Of a stretch of DNA of 48,636 nucleotides, positions 1,118 to 48,636 are shown piece by piece. The stretch's first letter is position 1. Each line of letters begins with the position of its first letter. The notes under the pieces are model-generated. The model ran no database searches. It was not told the DNA's origin and saw nothing but the letters and a program-made list of their open reading frames with translations. The translations under genes were made by a program, and so were the position numbers. This stretch comes from Welwitschia mirabilis (taxonomy: Eukaryota), in the NCBI GenBank assembly GCA_051453625.1, contig JBOZIK010000001.1, forward strand, positions 24,869,997 to 24,918,632. The letters run 5' to 3'.

Positions 1118-3847
1118 GCAAAAACAGATAAACAAGTTAAAAACGTCACATGGATGCACAATAACGACCTCTAAAATCGATGAAAAATTATCAAAAGTAC
1201 TAAAAATATGTCCTACCCTCCTTAAAAGATGCAATGCATCCCGAATTACCTAATTGTAAAAAGTCCCAAAACTGTGTATGTAGTGGGCCCCACAAGAAGT
1301 AAAAAATCGTAGTACTCAAATGAAAAATCTAATCTAGCAAAGTCGTAGATGACATCGCACTGATCAATTTTGCCTAAAGCACCACTATGATTTAACTTAC
1401 AGTTTGCGAGAAAATGAGTGTAAAGAGTAAAAGCCTGAAAATACCTCATAATATGCAAAAGTGATCATAACTTGAAAATATGCCCCGCAACCCGTCGCCG
1501 ATGTATGGTGGAAAACCATATCAATTTGATAACTATACCATATAGTAGGGGAGGGATCGGTAGTTCTTGTAAGAATTCACCATCCATCTTGCCTTGTCAG
1601 TTTCCAGTTGCTTACCTTCCATTGTGCAGTCAACTACATGTGGTTATATATGCGTGATGAGTTTGATCGCAAAAGCATGTATGCTTGGCACATGCATAAG
1701 CATAGTTATATGCTCCTCTGATAGAACTCATAACACAGCTAGTCCCTCATACAAAGCTCTCCATGCCCCTCTTCTTTTTATTCTATATAGTACAGTACAG
1801 TACAATGCGGTACGGTATGCACCTATTGGTGGGTTTATTTTCGTACAATGGTAGACCTTTCCCATCCACACCCCAATAGCATATTAATAATTGTTATATC
1901 TACACCTAAAACAAATAATACCACACTACCCGCTGCCTCTCTAGGGCCCTCATCCAACTAGAGGTAAGCAACCAGCGGGGGTAATATCGGGTCAATGGTT
2001 GCTACAGGCAGTATTGGGGGAGTGTAACATCTATTATGTTGTAAGGATCCCACATAGTATTTGGATTCACCTCCTCAAATCTGTAAGTCCCAAGACAAAG
2101 AGCGTGAAAAACTAAATAATATACATCAAAACTACCCGTCGAAAGGCTAAAAAACGAGAGAAAAAAATGAAAAATCAGGAGCAGAGAGAAACATACCTCA
2201 TTTTTGCAAATTTGAAGAAATCTTGTAATTCTAGTAATGAAATCAGACAAGACAAGTTCTAAAATGCCAATACTAGCCAAAGGGGTTATCTTCTCTTAAA
2301 AGAATGAAGGAAAACAATGAGAAAATGAATGAAAATGAGGAAAAATGGTTTGGACCATGCTTTTATCAGATTGTCATCCGCTCGCGTCATCTAGACGACA
2401 GCCATAGAATGACTGTTAGAAAAATCAGGTCATCGTCTGGCACATTATCACTTGAATGACAAGGTGGATGACGAGACACCAAAATCAAAAGGAAAAGATC
2501 AGCCATGAAAGTTAGGCTCGGGTAGAATCATTGAAGTGACGATTCTAAAAAGGAGAAAAAGATAGAAATCTGAAAATCACATAGAAAACACAAAAACCAG
2601 TAAAACCAAAGGAAAAGGGATAGAAACACACAAAAGGAAAAACTACGATTAAAGAAAATAGACTATCTAGATTGAAAACCTATAATAAAGACTGAATGAA
2701 TGTGCTTAAATAGAAAAATGAAAGCATAATAGACTTAGAAATCAATAATCCTACAAGGAAACTCATGAAGACTGTGGAAAATATGTTCTTTTAAATAATT
2801 TTTTATCAAAATTTATTTTTAAAAAAGTGTTTTATCATAATTGAACAGCAAGAAAACTACTAAATGATGAAAGTCCTAAGAAGAAATAAGAAAATGCAGA
2901 AATAACTTTGAAACAGTAGACTCAAAAACTAAAGAAAACCAGAGTAAAAATGGACATAAGGAATAAGGAGAAGATTGTTTACCTATCATAAGTACTAACC
3001 TAGCAAACTCCCAGGAAAAACATTATAACATCACTTGAGTAAATATGCATGAAAAAATGTATTAACTCCATAAAGTTTATTTGAAAAGGCAATGGTTATA
3101 GTGATATCCAAAGCTTCACGTGTGTAGAATAATGAATGCTAAAACCAAAAGTTACTTAGAAATGAACTCACTTGCCTCTACTCCACAAACTCACTAGAAT
3201 ATCCAAAAGTGAAATAATCCAATGGGAATCCTAAGAGTCTAAGAAACAAGCAATGCCTCTGATGATACCAGAAACATCACTGATCCCTAATCTCAAAGTG
3301 TTTATTTCTTTTTCCATGATGAGAGGAGCGCAATCATTATCAGAGGAGTAAGGACCTATGAAGCATGGCCAACTGAGCCCCCATTAGAGTTCCCACAGCT
3401 ATCATATTACACTGCTAAAGGCTCCTCTTAAAAATGTTTGCCCTAATGTACTTGCGATAGGACATCATGGTGACCATATTTTTGAGATAGCACAAATAGA
3501 AAACATCCTGGCCTTTATTTCACACTTTTTTTTTCGAGCAATTCTCATATAATCACACACCCAAAAAGAAAAAAAACGAAGGTGAATAAGTGAGATAAAA
3601 GACAAAAAAGAATACTTCCAAGTAATCTAAGATTTAAAAACCCTTGAAAAAAACACAAGAAACTGAGACATCTTCCTTTAAATATAGTTCATAGACATGG
3701 GAATGTCTCAATATTGGGTGAATCCAATTTTATCACCTGTAAATGCCCAAGTATAAAACTAATTATGATACTTTATGAAGTAATAAGTTTGAAAGATGAT
3801 TAGGTAATATCATAATATTTAACCAAAGGAGTAGGCTAAGAAAGAAC

Positions 3848-6800
3848 TTAAACAATGATAGGAAGGAAGTCCTCCTCACCAAGGGGAACCTCAAAAATAA
3901 GTGCTTCTACAATGTTCACAGTTGCATCTAAAGATTCCTTATATAATTTCAACCATTGTCCATTAATCTTCTGAATCTCTTTAGTTTCTAAATTTAAAAT
4001 TTTAACTGAGCCATTAAAATGCACTTTCTTTATGTAATAATTACTTAACCATTTAGAGGTTAACTTGTTATTCAAATGGTGAACTCTAGTATTATATAAT
4101 AAGATAAGTTGACCAGGTTTAAACTTTTAATGAAAAATCCTTTTATTATTTTTGAACTTTACTTAGGCTTTATGAATTAATTGATGATGTATGGTACTAA
4201 TTCTTTTTTTATCAAGATGATCTAATTGGGCTAACCTATATTAAGATTTTTAACAAAATCCACAAGATTTAGTTGATAAGATGTACGATAAGAATTGTAA
4301 CACACATTAACCGGTAAGACATAAACTTTATCATAAATAAGTTAGTAAGGTGAGAAACTAAGAGAAGTACGCTAAATAGTATGATAGGCCCAAAATACAT
4401 TGTTAAGCTTAGAAGGCCAAGACTTTTTATTAAGAAAGACAAGTTTTTGAAGCATTTTCTTTATTTCTCTATTAGCATTTTCAGCTTGTCCATTCATCTG
4501 AGGATAATAAGCATAAGCTATTATATGTTCAATACTAATGGACAGAAGAAGTTTTTTAAAAATTGAATTAATAAAATGAGTACTATGATCATTAATGATG
4601 ACTCTAGGGAAACCAAACCTTTGAAATATATAAGATCTAAGAAAATGATAGATAGTTCAAGCATCATTCAAAGAAGTAGGTATGGCTTCAACCCATTTAG
4701 TCACGTAATTAATAGCTACTAAAATGTAATTTTTATTAAAAGAAGATGGGTGAATAGGGGCCATGAAATTAATACCCCAATAATCAAAAGTCTCACACTC
4801 CAGAATAGGTTTAACGGGCATTTCCTGTGAATGAACAAGGCTACCAAAACACTGACAAGAATCACACCTTCTAACAAAATCAAACAAATTACAAAAGAGA
4901 AGGCAGTAAAAACTATAATGAAGGATTTTCATGGCAGTTTTATGTCCACTAAAATGTCTTCCACAAATACCACTATAATAAAGATGAAGAATCTTAGGTA
5001 TTTCCCAATCGGGCACACATTTTCTCATAATCTGGTCTTTGTACCTATGGTACAAATGTGGCTCGATCCACTCATAGTCACCTATACAATGAAGAAAATA
5101 TTTATGCTGATGATAGGTTCAATGTTGTGGTGTTTTTATGGTTACAAGATAGTTGACAATATCATCATATCATGGAGGAGGATGAGAAGAAGAAATAGCA
5201 AAAAGCTACTCATCAAGAAAGGAATCATCAATGAGAATGCCATGTAGAGAAGAAGGAAGTCGAGACAAATGATCAGAAATAGAATTATGCTTTCCTATTT
5301 TATCTATGATGGTCAAATAAAATTATTGCATAAAAAGGATCCATTTGATCAAATAGGCGCTAGAGTCTTTCTTGGTCATGAAGTAATGAATGGATGCATG
5401 ATTGGTATAAACATTCATGTGAAAGCTTAAAAGATAGTATCTAAGAGAATCAAGAAAAAAGATAATGTCAAGCATTTTTTTACTATAGTAGTGTAGTACA
5501 TCTGAGCTCTAGATAATGACTTACTATGGTAAGATATAACTTTGAAGTCCTTCTCATACTCTTAGTAAAGAACCCCACCCATGGTAAAATTGCTAGCATC
5601 ACACATAAGCTTAAAGTCAAGTGCCTAATTAGGTCCCATTACTATAGGAGCATGAGATAATTTATGTTTAAGCCTATCAAAAGCAATTTAACAAGATTCA
5701 TTCCATTTGAATTTGGCATCTTTCTCAAGTAACGGGTGAAGGGGTTTACAAATAGAAGCATAATTATAAATGAACCAATGGTAAAAACCACAATGACCAA
5801 GGAACGATCTCATTTGTTTAACATTTATAGGGGGATTAAGATTTTGAATAATACTAACTTTAGAAACATCCACCTTAATTCCTTCCCAAGAAATGTGATG
5901 ACCTAAAATAATGCCACTCTCTATAAGAAAATAACTCTTTTATCAACTCAAGTAGNNNNNNNNNNATCGATCTAAGACTTTCTCTAAATGATCTAAGATT
6001 TGCTCAAAAGTTTTGACATAGATAGAGAAGTCTTCTATAAAAATCTTTATGAAATCCTTAAGTATATTAAAAAAAGTACTCATCATAGCATGCTAAAAGG
6101 TACCAAGAGCATTGCAAAGTCTGAAAGGCATGCTTCTAAAGGCAAAGGTACTAAAAGAAGTGGTGAAGGTAGTTTTAGCTTTCCCTAAATTATATCAAGA
6201 ATTTTATTAAGAAAAGGTAAAGGACGGTGGTCTTTTTTAGTTACCTCATTTAGTTTTTAGAAGTTATGCATACACGTCATTTCCCAATCTTTTTAGGTAC
6301 TACTATTAAGGGGCTAACCCACTCACTATCAGCAATGGAGTAAATAATTCTAGCATCTATAAGTTTTATGATTTCATCTTTTACAATTTTCTTTAGGGCT
6401 AGATTTACTCTATACTGGGGTTACCTCATAGGTTTTGCATTTTCTTTAAGGTAGATGTTATATTACACAATGGAAGTGGAAATGGTTGATAGATCATTAT
6501 GAGATTAAGAAAATGCATAAACCTTTGATTGTAAGAGAGAAATGAGATTAGTTTCTTATTGAGATGAGAGATTTTTATTGATAATCAAAGGTTTATTTAG
6601 ATCTGTATTTATAAAAATGTATTTTACTCCACTGGCTAAAGGTTTTAGGTTTAAGTTAAGGTTCAGACTTCTGGTTTTTGGAAAATTTTCAAAAACGTTA
6701 ACTGTCATCTTAGATTGTCATCCAGACGTCAGTATTAGATGGCTAATCTTAACATAATAATTCTCAGGGTTTTTAGTTTTTTGGACATCAGAATAATTTA

Positions 6801-8352
6801 TAGACTTAAACTTACTCCTCCTCAAATCAGAAAACTCAGTTGGAAAATGGTCAAACTCAAGTTGTTCGTTAAGCACATAAAGTGATCCACTTTCATTTAA
6901 TCATCAAACAAGATTAAATCATGAAGCATGAATCATCTCTCCTCAAGTGGATGGTGTTATAAAAATAAGATTGGTTTTATTTCTTCCTTCACATCTAAAT
7001 CTTTGCCTAAATCATTTTTTGCCACATCAAACACTCTTATTAAAAATTGTTTATTTCCGAAATGGCACTTCATCAATTCAGTAGTTGTGTCTAGTATGCA
7101 ATGAGCTGTTACACAATAAGCTCTACTTAGAAATAGGGGATATCTACCATGATGCTCAACTTCTAAAACAACCACATCAATTGGGTAAAAGGATTTCTCT
7201 ATTTAAATGACTAAGTTCTTAATCACATCTAAAGATTTCTTGATGGATGTATTGACTAACTCTAAGATAATGCATGTAGGCTCTACTCTTTGTTCTAATC
7301 CAAGACGTTGACAAATGTGCAAGGGCATAATATTGACACTAGCTCCTCTATCTATCAAGGCTTTCTTAATTCTATGGTTTTCCTCTAAAGTGATACTAAC
7401 TATTATTGCCCCTAGGTCTTTAAACTTTAGACACTTTTTCTAAACCAAGTTGCTAATGGATTGAGCTAGGAAGGCCTTACTAAGAATGGTTCATTTTTGT
7501 TTCCTTCTTATTAGGTCTTTTCATGGCTTAGAGTATTTTGGATTCTCTTATAGAAGTTTCCAAAAATTTAAGTTAGTACTCACATTTACATTAAGGCTTC
7601 TAAATGATCATCAAATATGGGATTTACATTAAACCTATCAAGCCATGAAGTAGCGAGTTTCTTTTGTGAAGGATATTTTTTTGATTGCTAAGTGAGAAAG
7701 GAAAGGAATGGTTTTCTAAGATTTCTATGTCCTCTTTTTCATTATTTTTGTCATTTTAGGAAGTTAAAGCCTCATGGGTTATGTCATTTTCACTCCTTGT
7801 CACCACCTTACAATCTTTTCTTACTTCATTAGGGTTCTGTAAAGGTTGAGTGGTAAGGGTCCCTTGTGGTCTTTGATTGGTAAGCATGGTTTGTTATAAA
7901 ATACTTATAAGATTTTCTATGTTTGCATTTATTTTATTTTAAGTTTTTCTCAACTCTTCACTAGATTTCCTAAGAGGATCACTATAGTTTTAGACGTTGC
8001 AAGGGCTTAACAAGTTATTTAGATAGTTGAATTAAAAGTTTGAATGTTCAAATCTATTTTTGAAAGGCTAAAGTTAGGATGATGTGTTTGAAAATTTCTA
8101 GAATTTGCTTGCCCACTCATCCTATTTTAAAAATTGTTATTTTGGACTTCTCTTTAGTTGTGGTTTTGCATGTAGTTAAAAAGTCTTTAGTTAAATACAC
8201 AAACTTTCTCATAGATTATTTCTTTGTAAGTAGGAAGTAAAGGGAAATATTTTGTAACATGATAACTATTTTCACATAAATTACATGTTGGAACAATAAC
8301 TTCACTCTTTTTGGTTATCATTTTAGCATCAAGGATCATTTGGATATATTTC
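3848..8352 (-). pseudogene. Athila-like gag(C-term)-PR-RT-RNaseH-integrase pseudogene (copy A)
   Basis: ORF fragments 6957-7175 (protease), 5688-5873 (RT/RH, RSFLGHCGFY), 4657-5055 (integrase) and 3848-4075 (integrase C-terminus, KINGQWLKLY). Collinear with copy B. Confidence 0.88.
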
Positions 8353-8452
8353 NNNNNNNNNNNNNNNNNNNNNNNNNNNNNNNNNNNNNNNNNNNNNNNN
8401 NNNNNNNNNNNNNNNNNNNNNNNNNNNNNNNNNNNNNNNNNNNNNNNNNNNN

Positions 8453-11400
8453 TAGTAAAAAGCTGCTCATCAGGAAAGGAATCATTAATGAGAATGTTAT
8501 CTGGAGGAGAAGGAAGTCAAGACAAATGATCGGCAATAGAATTGTGCTTCCTTGCTTTATCTATGATGGTTAAATTAAATTTTTGCATAATAATAATCCA
8601 TCTAATTAAATGGGCATTAGAATCTTTCTCAGTCATGAGGTAACAAATAGCAGCATGATCAGTATAAACATTTATGTAAAATCCTAAAAGATAGTGTTTT
8701 AGATAATCAAGGCAAAAGATAATGGCAAGCATCTCTTTCTCTGTAGTGGTGTAATTCATCTGAGCTCTAAACAATGATTTGCTATGGTAAGATATAACTT
8801 TAAAATCATTCTCATACTTTGGCAAAGAACCCCACCCACGACAAAGTTACTAGCATCACACATAAGATCAAAGTCAAGTGCTCAATTGGGTCCCCTTACT
8901 ATAGGAGTATAAGATAATCTATGTTTAAGCCTATCGAAAGCAATTTGACAAGATTCATTCCATTCGAATTTAGCATCTTTTTCTAGTAATGAATGAAGGG
9001 GTTTATAAATAGAAGCATAATCACGAATGAATCAAAGGTAAAAATCACAATGACCAAGGAAAGATTGGATCTATTTAACATTTGTAGGGGAACTAAAATT
9101 TGGAATAATACCAACTTTAGAAGCATCCATCTTAATTCCCTTCCAAAACATATGGTGACCTAAAATAATGCCACTCTCTATAAGAAAATAACTATTTTCC
9201 CAACTCAAGTGGAGGCCACTAGAAAGGTATCGATCTAAGACTCTCTCTAAATAATTTAAGATTTATTCAAAAGTTTCAGCATAGATAGAGAAATCATCTA
9301 TGAAAATCTCAATGAAATCCTCAAGAATATCAGAAAAGATACCCATCATAGCATGATGAAAAATACTAGGAGCATTACAAAGTCCAAAAGGCAAGCATTT
9401 AAAGGCAAAGGTACTGAAAGGAGATGTGAAAGTTATTTTATTTTTGTCCTCAGTGGTAATGTAAACATGATTGTAACTGCTATAATCATCAAGGAAACAG
9501 TAAAAAGCATGAACCTGAATCCTATCAAGAATTTAATCGAGAAGGGCAAAGGATAGTAGTCTTTTTTAGTTACCTCCTTTAGTTTTCTGAAGTCTATGCA
9601 CATGCACCATTTCCCACCCTTTTTAGGTACTACTGTTAAGGAACTAACCCACTCACTATAAACAATGGAGTAAATGAATCCATCATCCATAAGTTTTATG
9701 ATTTTATCTTTTACAATTTACTTTAGGGTTGGATTGAGTCTATGTTAAGGTTGCCTCATAGGTTTAGCATTTTCTTTGAGGTACATTTTATGTTGCACAA
9801 TGGAAGTGGGTATGGCTGACAAATCTTTATGAGACCAAGCAAATGCATGAACCTTTGCTTCTAAAAGAGAGATAAGATCGAATTCTTATTAAGGTAAAAG
9901 ATTTTTGTTGATAATTAATGGTTTATTCATATATTTATTCAGAAAAATGTACTTTAGTTCACTGTCTAAAGGTTTTAGGTTCAGGTTTGAATTTAGACTT
10001 TTGGTTTCAATAAAATTTTCGGAGAAGCTGACTATCGTCTCAGACTTTCATTCAAATGGCAATAGTAGATGATGCACCTCAGAACAAGAATTCTTAGGGT
10101 TTTCAATCTCTCGAACTTCAAAATAGTTTATAGACTTAGACTCACTACTTCCCAGATTAGAAACCTTAGTTGAGAGATGAACAAACTCAAGTTAATCATT
10201 AAGCACATAAAGGTAGTCTACTTCCGATTTATCATTAAACAAGATTGGCTCATGAATCATGGTCCATCTCTCCTTAAGTGGATGATGCTGTAAAGTAGGG
10301 TTGATTTTATTTCTTCCTCCAAACTTAAATCATTGCATAAATCTTTTTTGGCAACATCAAACACTCTTATCAAAAGCTGTTTATTCCCAAAATGGAACTT
10401 CATCAATCTGATTCTTATATCTATTATGCAATGGGCTGTTGCAGAGAAAGCTCTACCTAAAAGTAGGGGATATTCACCATGGTGCTCAACTTTTAAAACA
10501 AATACATCAATGGGGTAGAAGGCTTCCTCTATCTGAATGACTAAGTCCTTGATCACACCTAATGGTTTCTTCATGGATGTATCAGCTAACTCCAAGATAA
10601 TGTGTGTAGGCTCTACTCTTTCTTTAAAACCAAGGCATTGACAAATGTGCAAGGGCATAATGTTAATACTAGCTCCTATATCAATCAAGGCTTTCTTAAT
10701 TCTATGGTTTCATTCTAAAGTAATACTCATGATTGCCGCCCCTAGATCTTTAAACTTTGGATCTTTTTTTATTACCAAGTTGCTAATGGATTGAGCTAGA
10801 AAGAATTTACTAGGGATGGTTCATTTTTATTTCATTATTATTAGATCTTTCGATAGCTTGGAGTATCTTGGATTTTCTTATAAAAGTTTTCAAAAAGGTA
10901 AGTTGATGCCTACATTTTACATTAAGGCTTTCAAATAATCATCAAAGATGGGGTTTGTGTTAAGCCTATCAAGCCATGGGGTAGTAGGTTTCTTTTNNNN
11001 NNNNNNNNNNNNNNNNNNNNNNNNNNNNNNNNNNNNNNNNNNNNNNNNNNNNNNNNNNNNNNNNNNNTCATCATCATTTTTGTCACTTTGAGAAGTTAAA
11101 GCCTCATTGGTAGGGAGAGTTGTGTTATTTCCACTTCTTATCACTACCTTACAATCTTTTCTTAGTTTATTAGGGTTTGGTAAAGATTGAGTGGCAAGTG
11201 ACTCTTATGGTCTTTGATTGGCAAGCATCGTTTATTGTAAAATACTCACAAGATTTTCTATGTGGGTGTTGTCTTCTTTTGAGTTTTTCTCAACTCCTTA
11301 ATGGAATTCCTAATAGGATCACTATGGNNNNNNNNNNNNNNAGGGTTTACCAAGTTGTTTGGATTGTTGGATTGAAAGTTTAAATGTTCAAATCTATTTC

Positions 11401-12470
11401 TCAAAGTTTGAAAGTTAGGATGATGTTTTGAAAATTTCTATAGTTTAGTTGCTCACTCATCCTATGTTGAAAGTTGTAATTTTTGGCTTGTATTTGGTTG
11501 TGGCTTTGAATGTAGTTGGAAGGTCTTTGGTTAAAGGCACAAACTTCCTCATAGATTTTCTCTTTGTAAGTAGGAAGTAAAGGGTAATCCTTTGTGACAT
11601 ACAAATCGCATGTCAGAACAACAACTTCACTCTTCTCAGTTACCACTTTAGCATCAAGGATCATCTAGGTGTATTTATCTAAGGTAGAAGTAAAATCCTT
11701 AATGATGCTAATTAGTTAATTTTCTATTTTGGTTTCATTCTTCTCATGTTTAACTTCTTTTAGGTCCTTAATGATTTGGCCTAATATTTGGTTTTCTCTA
11801 AAGGAGGGTTTAGGGTAGGTTTGAATTACTTCCACTAAATTTTTCAACACCTTTCAAGCATCTTCTAGGGTTTGGTTTAACAGGTTGCCTCCACAAGAAA
11901 AATCTACGAGTTGTTTGGTATGACTATTTAACTCACTATAAAAGTGGTCAACTAACTCTACCTCTGAAAAGGAATCTATAGGATTTGAATGTAAAGCAAC
12001 AAAGAATCGCTTATAAGTAGATGCACAGTCTTCATTAGGTAACTGTTGGAAGTTGATAACTTCTTTCTTACACTTCCAGATGATGATTTCACTCATGAAT
12101 CTATATATGAAGGCTTCTTGAACTTGACTCCAAGTTTTAAGGCATTTATGGGGAATCGTTCTAAGCCAAAATTTTGCTTTATCTCTCAAGGTGATGGGAA
12201 AGATAACCATATAGGTTCTATGAGTATTGGGTTGAAAAGGAATGGACGTAGGGGTTCCAATAATAGGAGGTGGATTTGGAAAGATAGGTTGTTTAAGCTT
12301 TTATTTTAAGATTGACATGGTAGAAAAATCAAACTCTCTAGAAATAAAAATGGAAATTGTAGAGAATTCAAAATGTTATGTACCTTCACTATTTTTATCT
12401 ATTTCTATTTCAAGATTTATCAAATCTTTTCTGATGTTTTCAGCAATCAACAGTCGCTCTCTATAGTATT
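8453..12470 (-). pseudogene. Athila-like gag-PR-RT-RNaseH pseudogene (copy B)
   Basis: ORF fragments 11854-12210 (gag), 10257-10688 (protease), 9433-9690 (RT N-part, SEWVSSLTVVPKKGGKW) and 8517-8825 (RNase H). Many stops and frameshifts. Confidence 0.88.
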
Positions 12471-12961
12471 TTTTTTATACTAGACTTAACCATTCATACT
12501 CTGTCTTAGATCTATAAAAGTATTATTGCTTTAGTCATCTGGACAATATCCTAGATGATAGAAATACAGAAACCACAAGAAAAGAAAAAGTAGAAAATAG
12601 AAATGAAAAATTAACTTTTTAACATAGTAAAGATTCAGAAAACAGTCTATCATTCACCTGGTTGTTTGGATGACAAAGAGGACGATGGAACTAGAATCTT
12701 AAAAATTTAAACAAAAAACTAAAATAGAAAAAACTTGCGGCACAGAGGCCATCATCTCCATAAGTTATCTGGATGACAGAGCATATGATAAAACTTTTTA
12801 TTGTAAAACAGAAAAAATAGAATTTGATTTAAAAAATAGAAAACTGACTCTGTAAAAATGGGAATTACCCTACTGCAGGTACCATTACATCACTGCTACA
12901 GTAAGCATCCAAATTGAAATACTTACCAAAGCAATGACAGCTCTTAAACTCTAAGCAGCCT

Positions 12962-12980
12962 TCCCTAGTAATGGCGCCAA
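12962..12980 (-). other. Primer binding site, Athila type (tRNA-Asp)
   Basis: Minus strand reads TTGGCGCCATTACTAGGGA, a transition-eroded form of TTGGCGCCGTTGCCGGGGA. Confidence 0.8.
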
Positions 12981-12985
12981 GATAT

Positions 12986-14072
12986 TTTAGTGCATATTTA
13001 TGTAATGTTTATGTCTTGATTAGAATTCTGTTAACTACAAATAATATGCACAAACAAAACACACTAATATAGATGGAAGTGACCTGAATGTCGTAATACA
13101 TTGAAGGCCAAAATATGGAAATAAGAGAGTTGCTTTCAAGATGAAAAATATTGTAACCCTAACCTACAAAAATAACTTGCAATGCATGAAAATGAAATAA
13201 AACACACTTATGCAAAATTAATTTAGGAAAAGAAATAATAATGCATCTAAACTAACCAAGAACAACCTTAACAAAGGTTGCCCTCATAATCTATATCACA
13301 AGAGAAGCTGGCACTGAATCTCAAGTAACATAAATTCTAAGGGAGAAGATAATTCATACATTAAGCACAAAAAGAAATGTTTATATTAAAAATTCACATC
13401 ACATCTATATTATAAAGTAGCTACATCTCAATGGAGGAAATGCCGCCCAATACTAAGGAAAAATCTATCTAAAATTACAGGATAGTTCTCTGGCCCCTTG
13501 ATCTCCTGTCATGAGTGTGTTACGTACCAACGAAGATGAGCAAGAAACGAGAGAAAGACATCTATTTATTGACTTAAAACATAAAATAAAATGGACAGAA
13601 AGGCATGGAAAAATCCTAACCATCATGCAAAAATAAATCAGAATAAGTGGAAAAAGTTTAGGTGAACATTCAGTGTGGGCGTTACAAATAGTGTCATCCA
13701 GCTAGTCGTCCAGACGATACAGGAGATGATGCTATCTCATAGTTAAACCCTCATCTGCTGCCAGTTAAACTACCATTTAGACATTAGTCAGCATCTAGTT
13801 TGCATAGTTATCTATTCCTATCATCCGGACAATCTGGTAGATGATGGACTTCGATAGATTGCTTTAGCTTTGTTGTTTGCAGGAAGTTATCATCCGAAAT
13901 ATATATTATTCATATTTGTTCAGAATGTTTGTAATTTACTAAGGAAATTGCATATTCACATCCTTTTCATTCCATCTTTCCAATATTATGAAAACCAATT
14001 ATTTACCTATCCATTTACCTGCAAAACAACTCAAAATACCCTATCAAATATATGTAAGTCTGTGGCGCAATA
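12986..14072 (-). repeat. 5' LTR of family A element (about 1.09 kb)
   Basis: Abuts the PBS. Alignable by eye at both ends to 44016-45254, e.g. both carry ctcaaaataccctatcaaatata near the plus-strand right end. Termini are eroded. Confidence 0.75.
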
Positions 14073-14238
14073 GTAAGTTTTATTATGATCATGTACTAAT
14101 TAAACATGCTTACTCCATTGTGCTATTTAGTAATGCAATTGTGATTTAATTTTGATTTTATGATATCCCAACTAAAATTGTAAATGCTTGCACTACTAAG
14201 ATTTACCAAGTCATGGACATCACAAAAAAGGGGAAGAT

Positions 14239-14505
14239 TGTTGATAAAATTCCAATTTTTATGACATTGTTATCAAATACAATGTGACTAATTTATAGAC
14301 ATGATATTAAAGATATCTTTTAGATTACCAAGGTACTTAAATTACAAATAGAAATCATCATCTAGCCAATGTTAATGTCTAAGGTAATTAATAGGTTATG
14401 CAAATAAAGCTCAAGATCATAGAAGACTCAACTTAAAATTCATGAAGGTTGGATAAAGTTGACCAGAGATGTCTATAGTGTTGAATACATCTATGTAAAG
14501 ATGTC
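14239..14505 (+). repeat. 5' part of a second SIRE-like LTR, cut by an assembly gap
   Basis: Begins TGTTGATAAAATT right after the PPT and is homologous to 18128-18460. Confidence 0.72.
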
Positions 14506-14605
14506 NNNNNNNNNNNNNNNNNNNNNNNNNNNNNNNNNNNNNNNNNNNNNNNNNNNNNNNNNNNNNNNNNNNNNNNNNNNNNNNNNNNNNNNNNNNNNNN
14601 NNNNN

Positions 14606-15215
14606 ATTAATAGTTTACTTTATCTTATAGCTAGTATATCAGATATAGTTCTAAATGTAGGGATATGTACATGTTATTAGAGTGATCCTAGAAAATCATA
14701 CCCTACTATCATTGAAAGAATATTTTATCATTTAAAAGGTACTAATAGGCCTTTGGTACTCAAAGGACTTATGCCTTTATCTAGTTTGAAATTATCATGT
14801 AGATTATATAGCTTTTAAGGATGATAGAAGGAGAACTAATGGAAGTCACTACTTATTAGAATAATGCTTAGTATCATGAAGTAGTAAGAGTGAATATTCA
14901 ATTACTCTCTCAATTGTCAAAGCTATGTAAATTGGTAGTAAAAGTTATTATGCTTAAGTTATTTAGGAAAAAAATATTGAAAAACTTTGGACTTAGAATG
15001 GAGAAAATTTAAACTTATTATGATAATAAGAGTTCCATCAACATATTTAAAAATTCTATTTAGCATTTCAGAATGAAGCACATTGAAATTAGAGACCACT
15101 TTCTTAGAGAGCATGTGAAAAATAAAGACAGCACTTTGGAATATGTCAAAATGAATTAAAATCATTGAATGAAGAAAGGTTCATTAAGCTATGCTAGAAT
15201 TTAGAGATTGGACCT
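14606..15215 (+). pseudogene. Ty1/copia RT C-terminus and RNase H remnant
   Basis: INSLLYLIASISDIVLNVGIC..., DDRRRTNG, DNKSS, KHIEIRDHFLREHV; interrupted by stops. Confidence 0.85.
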
Positions 15216-15794
15216 TTCCTAATCAAGTAATTCTATAGGTAACTTGGCCACTTACTTATGATTGATCTTCAAATTTATATTAAGTGATTAGCATTATCAA
15301 TTTTTATTTTTATTAATTTTACATAATATTATCTAATAATGATGTTAGTAATAGACAATCTAGTAGTTTTTAGGATATTTAAGATAGATATCTTTAAAAC
15401 TACAAACATCTTACTTAGAAATGTCTTTGATGTTAAGACATCTTTGAAGTATATAGACATCTTTAGTTGTTAATAAAAAGCAAATAAAAATAGATATCCT
15501 TTAAAAGATAGACATCTCATACTTTCAAAATAGATGTCTTTAAGGTTATAAACATCTTTATTGGCTCTAGGTAGTATTTTAAATGTTTTATTAGCAGACA
15601 TTTTTGGAATTTATAGAAATCTAGTTTTATCCTCTTAAATATCTTCCATGAGGTAGACATCTTTGATACTATCTGTAATTAGAAACCATGCTAAATCCTA
15701 GGATTTTAAGTCCTTTTTAAGTAAGAAAAGGACTATTAACCCTTATTTTCATTCCTTTAGTCATCAGATGTCTCTCTCATTATGCACAAAAACC

Positions 15795-15826
<32 letters not shown>
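15795..15826 (+). repeat. Compound microsatellite (CT)9(CA)7
   Basis: Read directly from the sequence. Confidence 0.95.
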
Positions 15827-15827
<1 letters not shown>

Positions 15828-15971
15828 ATTTCACTAGATAAACGTCTTTAATATTAAAGAAGTCTTTATAGTAAGACAACATATGCTATTTTCTTATTAA
15901 AAGTTCATATTTTTTCATTTTTATCAGAAATTCTTTCATGTTTTAGTTTCTACCTTTTTTATTTCATAAAT

Positions 15972-17100
15972 ATGATGAGGAAAAGACCCACTAGAACTCT
16001 TAAGGAAAAGGAACCTATTTATGAGACATAAAGACCATGGTATAAAGCTCAATTTTATCAAGAATCAGCTAAGAAATGGTTTAACAATTTGATTATAAAT
16101 TTTATCATTATAGAAAAAACTCTTAATTTTCATAAGCATAAGAAGGATTAGCTATTAGCATACTTCACTTGTCTTGGTTGGAACATGATCATTTAGATTG
16201 AAGAGATTATTATAGATCCTATTATAAGAAAATTATATGCTAATATTCATGAGATTAATGATGCTAATAGTATATTTTAGCACAAGTAAGAGGTACTCAT
16301 CTCATTCTAACTCCAATTTTTTTTAATAGACTACTTAGTATTGATGATTCAATTACTCCTTAGTTATACATGCATTCTTTAAAAGATATCTTCATATAAC
16401 AGTTAGTTAAAGTTTTAAGATGTATTTTAGTAATGTTATTTTTAGTTATGCAAACATGAAGTCTTATAAGAATGTTGAATAAAAGAACATGATGCCAAAT
16501 TCCTCTATGTTAAGCTTGGTTTCATTTATAATATTCTAGTATAAGTAGGCAGTCATAATTACTAAAATCTCATGAAAACATTTTTAGTGGATTATTTCCT
16601 TACAAGGGTTAAAATTCATATTTGTTTTGTACTAAGCATGAACATTGTTACTCTATTTTAGAAGGGTCAAACTTTGAGCCTTCCATATTTAATCAACTTC
16701 ATTATTAATAGTGATAGTATCATAGTGCCTTAGGTAAATCTTATTTAAGTAAAGAAGTCACTTTTAAAGTTTAGTAAGAAGAAACATGTATCAGTTTAGG
16801 TAGGGGAAGGCATGAGAAAAAGGCCTTTTAAAACACATTTTTAAAGATCCAAATATATAGGTTCACATAGTTCTTAATTAGTCAATAAGTATCTCTATGT
16901 CATAGCTAATATGGTTAAAAATATTAACAAAAACTTATTGAGATTAAAGAAGCATACATCCATCGTTAGTGAGAGGAAAGCACTTACTAGTAACTAGGAA
17001 TGTATTGGGACTTCTACATGATTAGATTTAGAGGAGGATTTAATGTCAAAGGAGATTATAATACTATGTACCATAAACTATAATTATAGTAGGGAAAAGA
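15972..17100 (+). pseudogene. Accessory ORF downstream of copia pol (SIRE env-like position), degenerate
   Basis: Starts MMRKRPTRTLKEKEP. Contains IIRKLYANI (16221-16247), QVRGTHLILTP and LSLPYLINFII. The 3' end is approximate. Confidence 0.55.
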
Positions 17101-18127
17101 ACATAAAAGAGTTAGTTACTTTAGAGATAAAGTAAGAGGAAACACACATTCAAGATAAGTACCAACTTCTACCAAAGGTGCAGGAGGAGTATCCAGTGGA
17201 TTTAGATGATTTAGATGATGAGCCTCTAATATTCTATATGGATTACTATACACTTTTAATTTGTCATCCTACACAACTACCTTTACTAGCTCATATACCT
17301 TCATTACCTTACTTACATTCACCACCACTACTTACACTTTCCTTTCATGCATTACCACTTAACACTGCTCCACCATCTGCACCTCATTTTACTTAAACTA
17401 TTTCAACTACTTTATTTGGTACTTTCATTATCCCTTAAATGTATTTTTGTATGAAGAACAAGCCTCTTAAAGTTATGGTAAGACATCACAACAATAGTCA
17501 TGAAAATAGTATACACATTCACTTGCCTCATCCTCATCATATGTCATCTAGACTTTCATTACCTAGAATAGTGATGATGATAGTGATGTTTCTAGGAATG
17601 GAGTTCCCTATACTATTAACTCTACTCTCAGTGATTAGATCTTTTTGTATTATTCAAAAAGAGGGAGGAGATATGGCAAATCACTTTGAACATCTTATGC
17701 AAGTTTGAAGGACATGGATTTAAGGCACTTGATTGGATCTTCTTGTGAGTGTCATCATAGTTGATGCTCACTCTTAATTTATTGCACAAATGACTTGATA
17801 TTTTATTTTTTCTTAGTTTTTTTCCCTTGTTGTACTCTTTCTTATTTTTTAGATGTATTTGTGATATATTTTATCATACTTATATTGATCTAGTACTAGC
17901 ACTACCATTGACTTTACTATCTTGTGTGATTATCAAATGTGTTTTTCATGTTAGTTCTTATTGCAATGTTTATTACACTCATGTATCAATTAAACATACA
18001 TAGTCCTTTGTACTAGTTAGTAATGCAATTATGATTTAATTTTATTTTTATGCTATCCAAGTATAATTGTAAATGCTTATACTAGTAAGATTTACTAAGT
18101 TCTAGATATCATCAAGAAGGAAGAGAT

Positions 18128-19742: not shown

Positions 19743-19754
19743 TGGTATCAAAAT
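19743..19754 (+). other. Primer binding site (tRNA-iMet type)
   Basis: TGGTATCAAAAT versus canonical TGGTATCAGAGC, located directly before gag. Confidence 0.7.
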
Positions 19755-19789
19755 AGGTACTCACAAAGATTAGTAACATCTTTGAGTGA

Positions 19790-32000: not shown

Positions 32001-33099
32001 TTGTACTTCTTATGCCATACTTTCAATGTGCATACTTTATTAAATACATGTATTTACTTATCTCTTATGCATGCTACAACTTATATATGTATATATATAA
32101 AATGCAGGATGTGTACTATGATATTTAATTACTTGAAAAAGGGAAAAATAATTAAAAAATAGGTAAACAAATAAAATACCAAAAAATTGTAATAATAGTT
32201 TAACGATAATAATCATAATAAATTTAATAATATCACAATTCCATCGATAAGCAAGAGATTATCGTAAAGACATTATGTGGTGGAATACATAATGAATTTG
32301 AAATAGTTTCATCACTAATCAATATGAATGCAATACTATCACAGGTTGTCAATGTGTGGTAAATGCCATGGTTGGAAATTTTTCTAAGAACTATCGCAGA
32401 CTCTTACAACATGATACCTAGAATGATACTTTACTTTACACATAGCTTGAATGTTATCAATGGACAACAGGCTTGAAATAGCTTGTTGCAACCCTTACAT
32501 GTAGTGATAGTGTTGATTAGGATCAAAAAATTATAAATAAAATGTAAAATAGATTTGACCCATATTTCAAAATAGCATTTTCCCCCTTCCTAGACATGTT
32601 GGAACTCTTGTTGACATCAAATTTGACCAATCCAACATAATAACATGCCTAGACAGCAATGTCTACTTTGAATGGATCTCATCATCATGGACAAGGCTCA
32701 TGTCTTTCTCATTTTTGTTATCTCTACTTAAAATAGAGTTTGGATTATTTTCTTGATCTTTCTTTAGTAAATTGAGTTATTATTCAATATTTTAAGGCTA
32801 ACAACCTACCCTCATAGAAATTAGACTTATTTAAACTAGCAAATGCCTTCTTTAAATTTAAAACTATAGAATTTGAGAAGAAAATGCAATAAGGATGTTG
32901 TTTCCAAGTTTAAAACCTCCCATATTTCATTTTTCTTTTGCTTTTCCCTTTCTTTTCAAAACATCTATTTTATTTAGCTTAGATTTAGCTATTTTGCTAT
33001 ACTAATAAGTACTTTTGATGATAATTTTAATTTGTTCTAGGCTAAGTAGATCACCTATAATAGAAGAACAAGTGATAACTCAACTTAACTAAATAAGAT

Positions 33100-34110
33100 T
33101 CAATACAAAATCTTACAACATAACTGCTACCACCTAACCTCCTCCCACATCGATTACCATGACCACTACTCCAAAAGTGGTAGTAGAAAAAAGGAGACAA
33201 TTATAGGATGTCATAGTTATTCTAGACTAGGATTACATTGGACTGCTAAAGTTAGTTTATCCTAGAATTATGTCAGAAATGATTCATTATGGATTGATTG
33301 GGTTTGTTAAGCCAATGCATAGGAGTAATTTTCTATTTAGGTCAAAGAGTTCTATTATAGGATGATCACATACTATAATCATTGTATTAATAAAGACCCT
33401 AATTAGCTAGAATGGAAAATTACCATTCTATCTCATCTGAGTAATACAAATATTAAAATTACAAAAGCATTTCTCCAAGAGAATTACAACATTCCATTTG
33501 AGGGAACACACCTATACATCAATTGAGGTATGAGGGAGCAAAAATTAGAATTTTTCAGATCTCTTGCAAAAGACGAGATTGTCTCTGAGGCTTTAGCTTT
33601 AGTTTTTGAGAAAGGCTTTTCCATTTAGATTCTCTCTCCTTTCACACTTGTATTGTTTAAAGTAATTACCACTAATATTCATCCCACAACACATGTAGCC
33701 AACATCATGATGTTTCCTATTAGGTTGGTGTTAGGTTTACAAAATATAGATTCCTACAATTTTATTTATATTGTAATTAAATTCATGAAATTAGTAGTTC
33801 AGCATCTTGATTATCCTAGCTTTCCTTTCTTTATAAATGCTATCTTGAGGGACAAAAATGTACCCAATCTAACTCATGAGGTAGTAACATAGATGATCAC
33901 TTTAACAAAAAAGGACTTGACTAAAATTCACCTCACAAAATAAGGCCAAGTACACCTACTAGAAGCACTGCCTTCTTAAATGAATGCCACTCTTAAAAGG
34001 ATCAACCTACTAGTGAGATAAGAGACATTAAAATGTGTATAGAGCTTGAGCTTGGACATGTGACAAGGCCACCACTGCCAAAGGAAGGGAAAGATTCATA
34101 AGAAATGAAA
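33100..34110 (+). pseudogene. Accessory ORF of the family C element, degenerate
   Basis: VKEFYY at 33341-33358. ORF 33653-33892 has ITTNIHPTTHVAN...SFPFFINAILRDKNVP. Ends are approximate. Confidence 0.6.
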
Positions 34111-34749
34111 ACTCCTTAAATTATATCTTTTCTTATTTTTGATTTTACAAGTGAAAGAATAATGATGATTTGTAATCTTATAATAAATGCTCTTTCTATT
34201 GTAAACATCGTTTTTGTAGGTATTCTTTTATTCTATCAATGAATTGAGTCCCATATAAAGCAGAGTTAAATTCACTTGTTAATTATTATGTGATGAAGAA
34301 ATTATCAGAAAGGGGACTATGATAGTACTATAGAATTTCACTTTTTAACAAATGATTGTATCATAATGTTTGAACTGAAAAGACTCTAAATTACCCTTCA
34401 TAAATGCATTTGGAAATAATTGTGTCAAAGAATTTTTTTAAAAAATGTTATAAGTAATAATATTAATTTTTTGTTTATCACATGATAATATCTAATGATT
34501 TGGTGTAATGTCCAAAATCATTGCTAGAAATTCCTTTAGTGATAGATTTATCACAAGATGATAAGAAGTATAACTAATTATAGGTCAATTAGCTTAATGC
34601 CCAATGATAGTAAACGATACATTTATCACTGATTATCACTCAACAATAGTGTCATGATAATAGAGGCTATCATCAATCGATAAGAATAAACACATAAAGT
34701 AAGTTCTATAGTCAAATAGTGAGATATCTATGTTTATTGCTTGCATATA

Positions 34750-43800: not shown

Positions 43801-44015
43801 ATTATATGTGTTCTATAGACAACACGCGATGCAAGTTGTTGAGATGTTGTGATGGTTGTTTAGACAATCTCATTGATTGACTATATTCATTACTTTTACT
43901 TCCATTTTCATTCCTATATTGTTTATAATAGGAAATGTAATAAGTATGCACTTAGACGTATTGATGTTGAAGTGAACATTGAACTCACTAGCATGATTAA
44001 TTTAAAGCTCACTAT

Positions 44016-45254
44016 TGTGGTGTGTATTTGTGCAAATATTACGTCTTTAAACAAATCATGAAAATCATCAAAATATATATATTGCATAATGCAACACAGT
44101 AATAGAGATGGGGTTGACCAAAATGTCATAATTTTGTTGAAGGCACAAGCGAGAAGAAGGAGAATTGATTTTAAAAAATGCTTATGTAATATCTAAGTAG
44201 AACAACAACAATGCAAAATAACAATGTAAATAAGCACTATGTAAATGAGATGCAAGTTCTGTTATAAATGCAATATCTATTCGATTACCAAATCAACCTG
44301 TCACGGAGATCGGTCCTATATAATCTAGATGAACCAAGGAAAGTTGTCACCAGACCATGACTAACCTAAGCTATCAGGTGTGTTAAACAGGATATGAAAA
44401 CGATGCAAAGTTAATTTAGGAAATGAAATGCAATGCACCTAAACTAACAATGTCAATCTTCATAAAGGTTGTCCTCTTGATCTATATCATAGATGAAGCT
44501 ATCATAGAATCAAAAGCAACATAAACCATAAGGGAGATGCACATAACAAATGATATGAAAAGGAAAATAGAGTTTTGATTAAGTCGAATCAACATCCATG
44601 TTATAAAATAGTAGCACCTCAATGAAGGATACATAGTCCGACATCAAAGAAGACGTTTCTCTGCAACAACAAAGGATGGACCTTCTACCCTTCAATCTCC
44701 TGTCATGGGAATTTCCAATGCCAAAAAAGATAAATCTAGAGTCAAGGGTGAAGGAGGTCTTTATTACAAAATAGACTTTAAAAATAATGCATACTAATAG
44801 ACGCAGTGAAAATCCGAACCCTAATAGCCACACAAGAAGGTGCAATACATATGATGAAAGTTTGGTGGAGTTCGATGACGTATTATTTTTAGGTGTTGTC
44901 CCGCTGGTCATCTGTACATCACATGAGACAATGCGATATCATACAGGTCCCACATCAACTGCCAGATGATAAGTACTTTTGTCATCTGTCCAGTCATCCT
45001 GATGATAAGGTGGATGATGGGCTTTAAAAAGATGTTTTTTGTGTTGGATTGACCTATTTAATTATAGGATTGCTGCTTCAGATCGGAAGTATTATGATTT
45101 GCTTTAAATGTTGTTAAATGTACTGAAGATTACATGCTTTTGTGATATCTGTCTTACCTCTTCATTATCATTGAAACTAAGCATAAACATGCCTAATGTC
45201 TTGCAAAACTACTCAAAATACCCTATCAAATATATAAAATTTGATAGTGCAACA
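44016..45254 (-). repeat. 3' LTR (TG...CA, about 1.24 kb)
   Basis: Plus strand begins TGTGGTG and ends GTGCAACA. The adjacent minus-strand PPT is AAGTGAAGGG (45267-45258). No TSD, so not a solo LTR. Confidence 0.78.
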
Positions 45255-45799
45255 TAGCCCTTCACTTAGCTTTGTCAGGCCTTGATAAAGCCAGGTGAAC
45301 AACTATGATTGGAAGCCAAATTGACTAATCATAAATCAACTTTAGAACTGTGAAGTATACTTAGAGATAATCTTAGAAATCTCAGAATGCAGAACAAAAA
45401 TGTGAGGAACAGATAATTAAACATTTCACCTATGAAGTGTAAGTGGTCGTACTGTTGTCATGATGGTCGTCCAGATGATAGAGGGGATGACAGGCTCAAA
45501 AATTGATCTTAAAAAAATAGAAGCCTATGAATTTTTTTTTAAGAAGATAAACATTAAAATGGATCACTATTAATAGTCCCCTACTCAAATATACAATAGA
45601 TACTAAAAGTTTATGCATAACATAAAAAATCCTCATCATGAAGTGTCAAAAAAATGATATGTAAAAGATGTGCATAATATCCAGCAATAACGATATACAC
45701 CATGGTGATATACTCAAAAAATGATATGTTTATATAAATAATGAGTTTTTATACAATCCACAGAGGGAAGATACATAATACAATTGTATTAAATCACTC

Positions 45800-47027
45800 C
45801 TCTTGTAGTGTTATGATGAACTCCTGATGCTCACAGCAGGCTCAAGTGCAGGTGGAGAAGAAGGAGGGTGCTTAGGATCTGCAGGAAACAATGGTCTAGT
45901 GATATCGTAATGGAATGTGCTATTTAGTCTCCCTATACTCTAACTACCGCTAGGAGGTTAACTGTCATACTGTGCTCAATACGTAAGATGCGCTGATGCA
46001 TATCAACCAACTGCTCCTTGGTGTTCTATACTCTTCTCTCAACCATAAATATTCTTTACTCAAGTATAGTGATGCCTTAGTCTACCGTCTCTTTGATGCT
46101 CTGTGTCATCTCTGCTAGAAGAGCCTGAATCTATTCAAAAGTGATACCGGCTGTAGGTCTCTGTACTTGAGGCCTCTCTGCCTCCTTTAGTATTTGAATG
46201 CCCATATCTTATAGGTAGCGAGCTGAAGTCTGAATATGTATAAGTCTTTGGTCGCCCACAAGCTTAGGTATACCGAAGCATCTACACATAGTTGAGAGGA
46301 GGCAAGGATATCCCAGAGCTTGTAGCTGTCGTGTCTCAATCACTCTTGAGTCTTCTCCAAATGAAGGTAGGTACATTCATTTGCTCCTCGTGTCTAAACA
46401 CTGTTAGCATCTGAAGGTGAATAACTATAGCTTGACTGTCATGAAATAACGGGTTGATGTTATGAATTACCCCTCTATGAAGAATCTGATAATTAGGCGA
46501 TAACTGTGTCACCAAAACTCCCTGTCTATCAGTAGTCAGGTTAGCTGGAATATCTAATGCTGTGCCATAAGCACGATGCTCCTCTGTACCACCTAGATCA
46601 GTAAGAACAATAATGTGGTGGGGCAAAATCGTGATTTGATGGCTGCAAATGGTAGCTACAATCATATCAACAAGTTGGTCATGAGCACCGAGATACCTCT
46701 CTATATGTATAGTATCATAGAATTCTTTGGTCTCTGAAATGAATATACGCCTTGTGCATTTATGATCGACCAGAGTTTTAGATCCGTCAGCCTCTAATCC
46801 ACCTATGGCTCTAATCATCTCATGAAGTCCCCAAAATGTCTCTCTACACGAATGATAATTGTCTAAATCGAGAGAGACTTAGCTCCACGAGATGGAGAGT
46901 GGACTAGCTTTGCCTGCTTAACCTTTGGTGGTGCCAATAGGCCCGCCTCCTACTTTAGTGCTTCGGCCTTTGTCTCAGCTTATCTCGCTCTACGTGTGCA
47001 TGGCCTAATCAGTCATTAACATGAAAT
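45800..47027 (-). pseudogene. Accessory ORF of the second family A-related element; the best-preserved copy in the window
   Basis: Includes ORF 46336-46818 (ETKEFYDTI...VIHNINPLFHDS...MNVPTFIWRRL) followed by YPCLLSTMCRCFGIP. From memory it resembles the plant transposon protein / Athila ORF families; no search was run. Confidence 0.65.
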
Positions 47028-48636
47028 CCATCATGCAAGATCAAGTGGAGATAGCTAAAATATATCACGTGGAAGCTTTAAATGACCTCATAAAACGGTT
47101 CTTAATGTGTAAAAATCATAAAAATACATTCCAGCCTCCTCCTCAAAAATAAAAAGGTATAAAACTAATGGACCCCACATAAGGTAAAAAATAAAAGTTC
47201 CCAAATGAAAAATCTAATCCAGTAGAGTTGTAAAGCTTATTGTATTGACCAATTTTTCCTATAGGACCATAACATTTCGACTTACAGTTCTTGAGAAAAT
47301 GAGGTTTAAAGTAAAAAACATAATTCTACCTCGTAAAACGCATAATTCAAGATAACTTGTAACATACGTGGTGAAAATCAAATCCGTAAGTTCCAAATCA
47401 AAGAGCACAAAAAACTAAACGACATATGTGAAAACTATGTGCAGAAAGGCTAAAAAATGCAAGAACAAATTGAAAATAAGGAGGGAGAGAAAAACATACC
47501 TCATTTTTTAAAATTCGTTGAAAATTCACAATTTGGGGTACTAATCTGACTGGAGAAAGTTTCACAACATTGCTAGGGACTGGAGTGACTATTTTCTCTT
47601 AGATGAACAGATAAAAATGACAGAGAATGGGAAAAAATAAAGGAAAAGAAATTGACCCGCGGTTTTATTGCACTGTCATTCGGTCGCATTGTCTGGATGA
47701 CAACACTAGGACGACTGTTAAAAAAAATATTAGTTGTTACTCTCCATGTTTTTTGGACAACTGAATGATGAGACTTTAAAAAATTTTTAGAAAAATGAAG
47801 ATGTCACCTGACTAAGTTAGACTTAGATATTAATGTGAAGGTATTAGATTTTATCAGAAAACGTGAAAAATAGGGAATGATGATGAATTGTGACGAGTGA
47901 GGATAATGAGGAAAACTCAAAGAAATCGAAAGATAGAGTGATAAAAATGCACTGAGTAGGATGAAGCCTGACAAAGAAAATTGAAGAAATGTGCCCGAGC
48001 TGAAAAATACTCATAAAAATATGTGGAACTCTAAAAGACTCAAAAGGAATCTCATAAAAATCGTGAAGAATTCATCTAAGAATAAGAGAAGATTATCTAA
48101 TTAAAATGCTAAAAAAAGTCAACTTTTTATCAATAAAATAACACAAGTGAAAATGAAAATAATATGAAGGAAATTATTGAATGATAAGGTCTTAAAAATG
48201 ATGATAAAAAGTACGAAATGACTTTGAAACAACAAACTAAGGAATTGGACACTAAGACCATGAGGAAGATAGCTTACCTACCTAAATGCTAACCTAGCAA
48301 ACCCACTTAGAAGACATCATAAAGCCACATGAGTAAAGATGCATGACTAAACGTATCAGCTCCATAAAGTTTCATTAGAAAAGATAGTGATTATGACGAC
48401 ACAATGGACCAAGTACTCAAAACAATGAAGGATAAGATTAAAATCTTCTTAGAAATGAACTCACCTGTTCACATCTCAAAACACACTTGAATCCTCAAAA
48501 ATGAAATGATCATGTGGGAATACTAAGAGTCTAGGAAACAAGCAACGCCTCTGATGATACTAAGAATACCAATAATCCTATAACCTTAAACTTTATTACT
48601 ACTTTTGATGATGAAGGGAGTACAACCATAGTTAGA

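Follow-up and report, generated by a model that had tools for sequence, protein, structure and literature searches.

The role and expression of the "env-like" extra open reading frames (ORFs) of plant retrotransposons have been in question for more than 20 years, and the closest described precedent for the repeats considered here comes from the Sireviruses. Bousios et al. (2010, BMC Genomics 11:89, PMC2829016) report that these elements carry "RM boxes," i.e., family-specific, palindromic, CpG-rich repeats in 8-32 copies per element, which sit in the upper half (U3) of the long terminal repeat (LTR), before the TATA box; of the linker RM boxes that they describe, 77 of 79 lie upstream of ENV, and only ENV-containing elements are reported to have them. 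Here, we compare these systems with a 48,636-nucleotide stretch of Welwitschia mirabilis DNA (contig JBOZIK010000001.1, positions 24,869,997 to 24,918,632; hereafter "the window"), in which three LTR-retrotransposon families, namely two gypsy families (A and C) and one copia-like element, are present as dead copies, each with an extra sense ORF 3' of pol.

To our knowledge, the LTR and pre-ENV boxes of Sireviruses, described in 2010, are still without a known binder. Their describers proposed cis-regulation together with an internal ENV promoter, while stating that a common factor could not be named, and reported box conservation of >85% inside elements with LTRs that have otherwise diverged strongly; in their Table 3, four ENV-less Sireviruses retain 8-9 LTR boxes (PMC2829016). 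Among gypsy elements, an "ENV ORF promoter / internal promoter" has been mapped in Arabidopsis Athila6A (Panda et al. 2016, PMC4977677), and the 3' ORF of a sunflower Athila is reported to contain PF20167 at residues 133-312 and to be predicted nuclear, with a nuclear localisation signal (DeepLoc 0.80; PMC11728184). A description of palindromic or repeated boxes in Athila-type elements was not found in the searchable literature, which comprised the main texts of freely accessible papers.

We favor, with moderate confidence, the reading that the boxes in the window are family-specific cis-regulatory repeats of the Sirevirus RM kind, located in the LTR and in the region that precedes the extra ORF. 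They would act at the DNA level, as sites in multiple copies that are bound by transcription factors, most likely those of the host. In this way they would drive or tune the LTR promoter as well as an internal one for the extra ORF, and their CpG content would make them sensitive to methylation. The core of the copia-like boxes, presumably GACGTC before decay, would then be a plant C-box, which is among the ACGT cores reported to be bound by plant bZIPs (PMC9736030). For family A, the best-supported view is that the RM-type layout extends to an Athila-type gypsy element, with copies in the leader added; the layout is known for Sireviruses (PMC2829016), and what this locus appears to contribute is its presence in an Athila-type gypsy element too. 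If Athila-type elements do use the same layout, it would be a general feature of the class and not a Sirevirus oddity, and the four-half-site palindrome of family A would offer binding and reporter assays a precisely delimited sequence. The copies at this locus are dead, and the locus itself carries no functional weight.

A preliminary description of the window had proposed that all three families pair a related accessory ORF, possibly a dimeric DNA binder, with a private CpG-centered motif of shared 18-20 bp geometry. The motifs of family A and of the copia-like element hold up, as do the PF20167-type ORFs of families A and C, whereas the family C motif, the kinship of the copia ORF, and the common geometry do not; a private palindromic motif before the ORF is thereby retained in two of the three families (A and copia), and not in family C as it had been written. 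Apart from an HSP90 gene, the window consists of nested, dead, CpG-decayed plant LTR retrotransposons. It is AT-rich (GC 0.20-0.44 per 2 kb), contains nine N runs, and is strongly depleted in CpG (observed/expected 0.02-0.6 per 2 kb). Patterns tolerant of CG to TG/CA changes were searched beside exact strings, and because of this depletion they are a fair motif test, while the near-absence of exact motif strings is to be expected from CpG decay. Of the strings given earlier, AGACGTCT has no exact match in the window, and GTCGTCYRGACGAC survives as two matches when up to one mismatch is allowed. The elements are mostly single-copy and all are decayed, and their accessory ORFs were read through stops with X.

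Family A, which is probably a non-chromovirus gypsy of the Athila type, lies on the minus strand in two collinear copies, A1 and A2, of 69-73% identity. Its motif is real and stronger than had been claimed. The unit reads T-GTCGTCY-N5-6-GTCGTCY-RGACGAY-N6-7-GRACGAY, i.e., four half-sites forming a palindrome of 38-41 bp. Its core, GTYRTCYRGAYRAC, has eight matches with at most one mismatch in the whole window against 0.13 expected, and none of 100 shuffles reached eight. A regular expression for the full composite finds five sites (2373, 13693, 44981, 45454, and 47675), with no site in any of 200 Markov simulations, and a sixth, degenerate copy at 44895 was recognized by eye. The family A sites, for which no strand is assigned, are as follows.

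2373..2413: A1 internal composite palindrome in the linker between pol and the accessory ORF, with a partial second copy at 2429-2473
12534..12777: A1 leader core palindromes, decayed, at 12534, 12661, and 12764, in the interval from the PBS (primer-binding site) to gag, with flanking half-sites seen by eye
13693..13730: A1 LTR composite palindrome, GTCATCC-N5-GTCGTCC-AGACGAT-N6-GATGAT
44895..45491: A2 3' LTR composites (copies at 45454 and 44981 and the degenerate copy at 44895)
47675..47715: A2 internal composite palindrome, preceding the accessory ORF

The same composite thus recurs in LTR, leader, and pre-ORF linker alike, in copies that are only about 69-73% identical, which argues for the cis-regulatory reading. 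The half-sites are preserved in A1 and A2 while the N5-7 spacers vary, the pattern expected of half-sites recognized by a protein. We tentatively place the copy at 45454 inside the A2 LTR because a run resembling a polypurine tract lies near 45590. One further core copy, at 6717, falls within A1 pol and is not retained in the paralogous block. The earlier statement that the motif cluster lies between pol and the accessory ORF is therefore right for the sites at 2373 and 47675 and too narrow for the family, whose copies also occupy LTR, leader, and pol.

The copia-like element carries its boxes as an array directly upstream of a long ORF, which likewise supports the cis-regulatory reading.

15386..15865, plus strand: copia-like motif array, degenerate, about 18-19 bp, with a palindromic AGA(CG)TCT core, 16 sites
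15972..17705, plus strand: copia-like long accessory (env-like) frame, a single frame of about 578 codons with many stops and a proline-rich stretch

The tolerant pattern AGAYRTCT, which is its own reverse complement and hence has dyad symmetry, is found 23 times in the window against 4.69 expected, seven of these matches lying in 15386-15773; when up to one mismatch is allowed, 15386-15865 holds 16 sites. A spacing near 18 bp, as had been described, is supported by the gaps between neighbors: 7 of 15 measure 18-20 bp (0.82 at random) and 10 of 15 measure 17-22 bp (1.62 at random), spacings that none of 5000 random placements reached, and Tandem Repeats Finder assigns the array a period of 19. 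The central dinucleotide is CA in seven sites, TG in three, TA in three, CG in one, and another in two, and the CA, TG, and TA variants together with the single CG fit an ancestral CpG, so that the ancestral box would have been AGACGTCT. The array stops 107 bp short of the long frame's first ATG (15972). A (CT)9(CA)n microsatellite lies within the array at 15795-15826. Three further AGAYRTCT matches, in 17969-18457, were left out of the array because they lie at homologous coding positions.

In family C, probably also a non-chromovirus gypsy of the Athila type, clusters of GATA-core sites (TATCRY/RYGATA) flank the accessory ORF, a placement that is again in line with cis-regulation.

32203..32509, no strand assigned: family C cluster 1, GATA-core sites in the interval between pol and the accessory ORF
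34319..34684, no strand assigned: family C cluster 2, GATA-core sites 3' of the ORF, in repeat units of about 74 bp with 10-bp steps

Whereas the mean is 1.3 such sites per 400 bp, the interval 32201-32600 holds 8 and the interval 34301-34700 holds 13, and cluster 2 corresponds to repeat families D2 and D5. The motif first given for this family, TATCGC-N13-14-GCGATA, has no match, and a tolerant version, TATYRC-N12-15-GYRATA, also has none in family C. Nor is the 18-20 bp geometry shared among the families, being true of the copia array only. Family C sites are spaced in 10-bp and about 74-bp steps, with pairs 18-20 bp apart numbering 1 versus 0.5 at random (P 0.40) and 4 versus 1.3 at random (P 0.035); family A half-sites have offsets of 0, 12-13, 19-20, and 32-34, so that a value of 18-20 bp is obtained only by picking interleaved half-site pairs.

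Both gypsy families have an accessory ORF of PF20167 type, this profile being the sole or best Pfam match of all three copies.

15..1200, minus strand: A1 accessory ORF, PF20167-like, with stops, a shift of frame, and an N gap interrupting it
46100..46878, minus strand: A2 accessory ORF, with an open 180-aa frame at 46339-46878 and the YPCLL part next to it in a different frame
33269..33889, plus strand: family C accessory ORF, PF20167-like

The comparison with PF20167 and ATHILA (PF03078) by HMMER, which the preliminary description had suggested, gives E-values for PF20167 from 4.1e-6 to 0.017: A1 scores 27.3 bits (E 4.1e-6, profile positions 95-176), C 17.2 bits (E 0.0049, profile positions 20-177), and A2 15.4 bits (E 0.017), all below the Pfam gathering cut-off of 45 bits because the copies are decayed. 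Protein language-model look-alikes point the same way, with PF20167 clusters making up 24 of 30 named matches for the A2 ORF (4 others being PF03078) and 23 of 30 for the C ORF (PF03078 being among the rest). The two A copies of the ORF are about 50% identical by tblastn, and no pairwise alignment was obtained between the A and C ORFs. Kinship of the A and C ORFs to PF20167, the Athila-type extra ORF, is thus suggested by weak but consistent matches. A run of 24 G (minus-strand reading) at 536-559 adjoins the N gap within the A1 ORF.

The copia ORF shows no detectable kinship of this sort, and the claim of related accessory ORFs is supported for A and C only. It gave no Pfam match at E up to 10 with hmmscan, nothing against the gypsy ORFs by tblastn or with a local HMM, and only out-of-register alignments to them with hhalign (E 0.77 and 0.11); the sole remaining likeness is the order, seen by eye, of short motifs (RKLYAN ... 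LPY). Its C-terminal hydrophobic 19-mer has a Kyte-Doolittle value of 2.32, where 1.7% of background windows are at or above 2.0 and 0.31% at or above 2.4. This end leans towards a membrane, env-like protein, as in the env-like ORFs of Sireviruses, an outcome that the preliminary description had itself set against a DNA-binding role.

Wider searches with the family A ORF and motif returned no homologous loci. The A2 read-through found no match in homologous-protein searches, and an alignment of four rows also gave none with E-values of up to 10 allowed. A HMMER search with the A2 ORF gave a single match, a 3267-aa bacterial repeat protein with Big_13, RTX repeats, and VWA, which we rejected as spurious. 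In metagenome contigs, 95 pattern stretches matched with a single-protein query and none was confirmed by tblastn, and the exact composite motif was found at no locus in metagenome contigs and at none in viral contigs.

Several observations weigh against reading the boxes as cis-regulatory repeats. All copies in the window are dead, and family A also has its motif in leader sequence that is transcribed and, in one case, within pol. The window yielded no LTR of the copia-like element, which shows the pre-ORF part of the "LTR plus pre-ORF" layout, and the element resembles a Sirevirus in its order of pol, boxes, and a long ORF with a hydrophobic C-terminus and on reading by eye. Its boxes have GACGTC as their core, and the CGG-CCG signature, which Table 3 of Bousios et al. 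gives for 12 of 13 published RM boxes, and which the Tnd-1 box also lacks (PMC2829016), is missing here. In family C, the clusters are less marked and could simply be tandem repeats. The leader and pol copies of family A suit a role in RNA as well as one in DNA, and such a role is a live rival for this family, albeit an unlikely one: the self-complementary boxes could be dimerization or packaging signals, or long-range pairing between leader and pre-ORF copies could place a splice donor in the leader near the acceptor used by a subgenomic ORF mRNA. All family A copies belong to transcribed parts of the element, namely leader, linker, and, at the RNA 3' end, U3; a donor-like GGTAAGT, of which that strand of the window has just one other, lies at 12921 (minus strand), 43 nt past the PBS-like site; 60-nt windows after the internal copy have a pyrimidine share of 78-80% and terminate in AG; and each of the two internal copies folds into a hairpin of two stems (z-scores -2.8 and -2.1). 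For Bagy2 and Athila, moreover, spliced env-like mRNAs have been either reported or predicted, as cited in PMC2829016 and PMC7264820. However, those two are the only copies of six that fold better than shuffles, the half-sites are separated by spacers that do not complement each other, the pyrimidine richness spans the whole linker and not just the stretch after the motif, the splice sites were recognized by eye only, and the reported concentration of Sirevirus boxes in U3 before the TATA box (PMC2829016) points to action at the DNA level. As an observation in its own right, the GGTAAGT at 12921 recalls the major splice donor of retroviruses.

That the boxes have no dedicated function, being short tandem or palindromic repeats expanded by slippage and serving mainly as hairpin-forming hot spots for host small interfering RNAs (siRNAs), also strikes us as improbable. 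It would agree with the family-specific tandem arrays that are described as common in Retand/Tat elements, between pol and the 3' LTR and with no known function (Vicient 2025, PMC11963269), with the report that the palindrome region of maize Sireviruses is hairpin-capable and an siRNA hot spot (Bousios et al. 2016, PMC4728375), and with the forms taken by family C cluster 2, which resembles an approximately 74-bp tandem repeat, and by the copia array, a degenerate tandem repeat of about 19 bp. It accords poorly with the family A composite, which is dispersed at intervals of about 86 to 470 bp over three regions, is not tandem, and holds its four half-sites in a constant register across two diverged copies, and also with the conservation of Sirevirus boxes amid divergent LTRs noted above. 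A protein acting on the element's own DNA is a further and still less probable account, namely that the PF20167-type accessory product is a nuclear, sequence-specific binder of its own boxes, probably an oligomer, with an activating or anti-silencing effect like that of Tat/Tax or of VANC, the anti-silencing proteins of Arabidopsis VANDAL DNA transposons. Boxes and ORF occur together in three families in one window, and four half-sites in dyad symmetry suit a dimer or tetramer. The predicted nuclear location of the sunflower Athila ORF (PMC11728184), the reported confinement of Sirevirus linker boxes to ENV-containing elements (PMC2829016), and the suggestion, by prediction only, that the extra ORF product TRP28 of Retand binds DNA and regulates its element (PMC11963269) are in keeping with it. 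Against this, the copia ORF has no detectable kinship to the gypsy ORFs and has at its C-terminus a hydrophobic segment such as env-like proteins typically show, Pfam scans of the window frames reported no VANC-like or other DNA-binding domain, AlphaFold2 on the A2 ORF (4-row alignment) gave an unusable model with a mean pLDDT of 40.4, and co-evolution of box and protein cannot be judged from three families in one window. Published data also speak weakly against it: the LTR boxes that ENV-less Sireviruses keep (PMC2829016, Table 3) indicate that RM boxes work without a cis-encoded ENV. The most far-reaching version, in which Sirevirus copia and Athila gypsy elements would have in common one control module of family-private palindromic boxes in U3, leader, and pre-ORF region, with the element's own nuclear PF20167-type protein reading these co-evolving boxes as an auto-regulator akin to Tat/Tax or VANC and the Sirevirus "envelope" ORF a distant relative of the Athila ORF, appears to us very unlikely. 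Binding by host factors to repeats of the RM kind thus remains the reading that we prefer.

The rest of family A is arranged on the minus strand in the order gag, protease (PR), reverse transcriptase (RT), RNase H, and integrase, followed by the sense accessory ORF after pol.

12982..14060, minus strand: A1 partial 5' LTR with putative ends, its upstream end truncated by the copia-like fragment
12968-12979, minus strand: A1 PBS-like TGGCGCCATTAC, which begins TGGCGCC...
11857..12300, minus strand: A1 gag (PF03732, E 1.4e-8)
3851..10709, minus strand: A1 pol (protease, RT, RNase H, a second PR-RT block, then integrase)
48629-44403, minus strand: A2 (linker, accessory ORF, and 3' LTR region)

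Within the LTRs, 13210-13438 of A1 and 44403-44629 of A2 are 72.7% identical, and 14020-14053 and 45202-45235 are 97% identical. A1 pol matches RVT_1 (E 9e-9) and RT_RNaseH (E 3.4e-23) and, weakly, protease (E 0.019), the integrase zinc domain (E 0.14), and rve (E 0.12). Its two PR-RT blocks, 5196-8351 and 8453-11676, are about 80% identical and stand head to tail, with N runs between and around them; the duplication could be due to recombined or nested copies or to a scaffolding artifact. Family C is represented by the following pol region, and no LTR pair of this family was found in the window.

28575..31900, plus strand: family C pol (protease, RT, RNase H, integrase), its end placed by eye

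Its Pfam matches are RT_RNaseH (E 2.5e-12), rve (E 0.0012), and protease (E 0.014, at 28575), and Pfam scans found no chromodomain among the scanned gypsy frames of families A and C.

Upstream of the copia-like array lies a segment which we take to be the end of copia pol.

14079..15250, plus strand: copia-like pol C-terminus (presumably RT-RNase H), matched by eye to a copia consensus

It had no Pfam match and no homologue in a protein search against longer proteins. Part of it, 14079-14502, is repeated at 17969-18457 with 78-84% identity, this second copy following directly after the long accessory frame. The pair was considered as the LTRs of a deleted element and rejected, the sequence after the N gap being copia RNase H by eye. 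A further copia element begins at 19743-20370 (plus strand), with a PBS-like TGGTATCAAAA at 19743 and gag (PF14223, E 2.7e-8) at about 19975-20370, and 20542-21237 is repeated at 25800-26493 with 76% identity. The one intact host gene in the window encodes HSP90 (PF00183, E 7.3e-244 by Pfam scan, at 38806-40404); the apparently intact, cytosolic-type gene spans 38397-40404 (plus strand), with an upstream exon holding the ATPase part, and occupies the sole GC- and CpG-richer part of the window, flanked by family C and A2.

When set beside the described systems, the locus is closest to Sireviruses in its boxes and to Athila in its gypsy ORFs. The analogy with Sirevirus repeats that had been drawn at the outset is correct and corresponds to the published RM boxes. 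The copia-like array fits these directly, with at least 8 copies (16), palindromic form, and a position upstream of an env-like ORF, and it has a GACGTC core in common with the Usier box, GTCGGACGTCCGAC, as listed in Table 3 of Bousios et al. (PMC2829016). Families A and C differ from Sireviruses in being gypsy elements, and the family A unit differs as a four-half-site composite with additional copies in the leader, while its combination of LTR copies with a pre-ORF copy is alike. With VANC and VANDAL, the likeness is one of idea only, that of an accessory protein acting on the element's own family-specific non-coding motifs, and VANDAL is a DNA transposon whereas the elements here are retrotransposons. 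Retand elements have antisense extra ORFs with PF04195, in contrast to the sense, PF20167-like ORFs of the window. Athila elements are the nearer match for families A and C, which are likewise gypsy elements without a chromodomain hit, with a sense ORF after pol for which PF20167 is the best or only match and, in A1, with a PBS-like site of the TGGCGCC... type.

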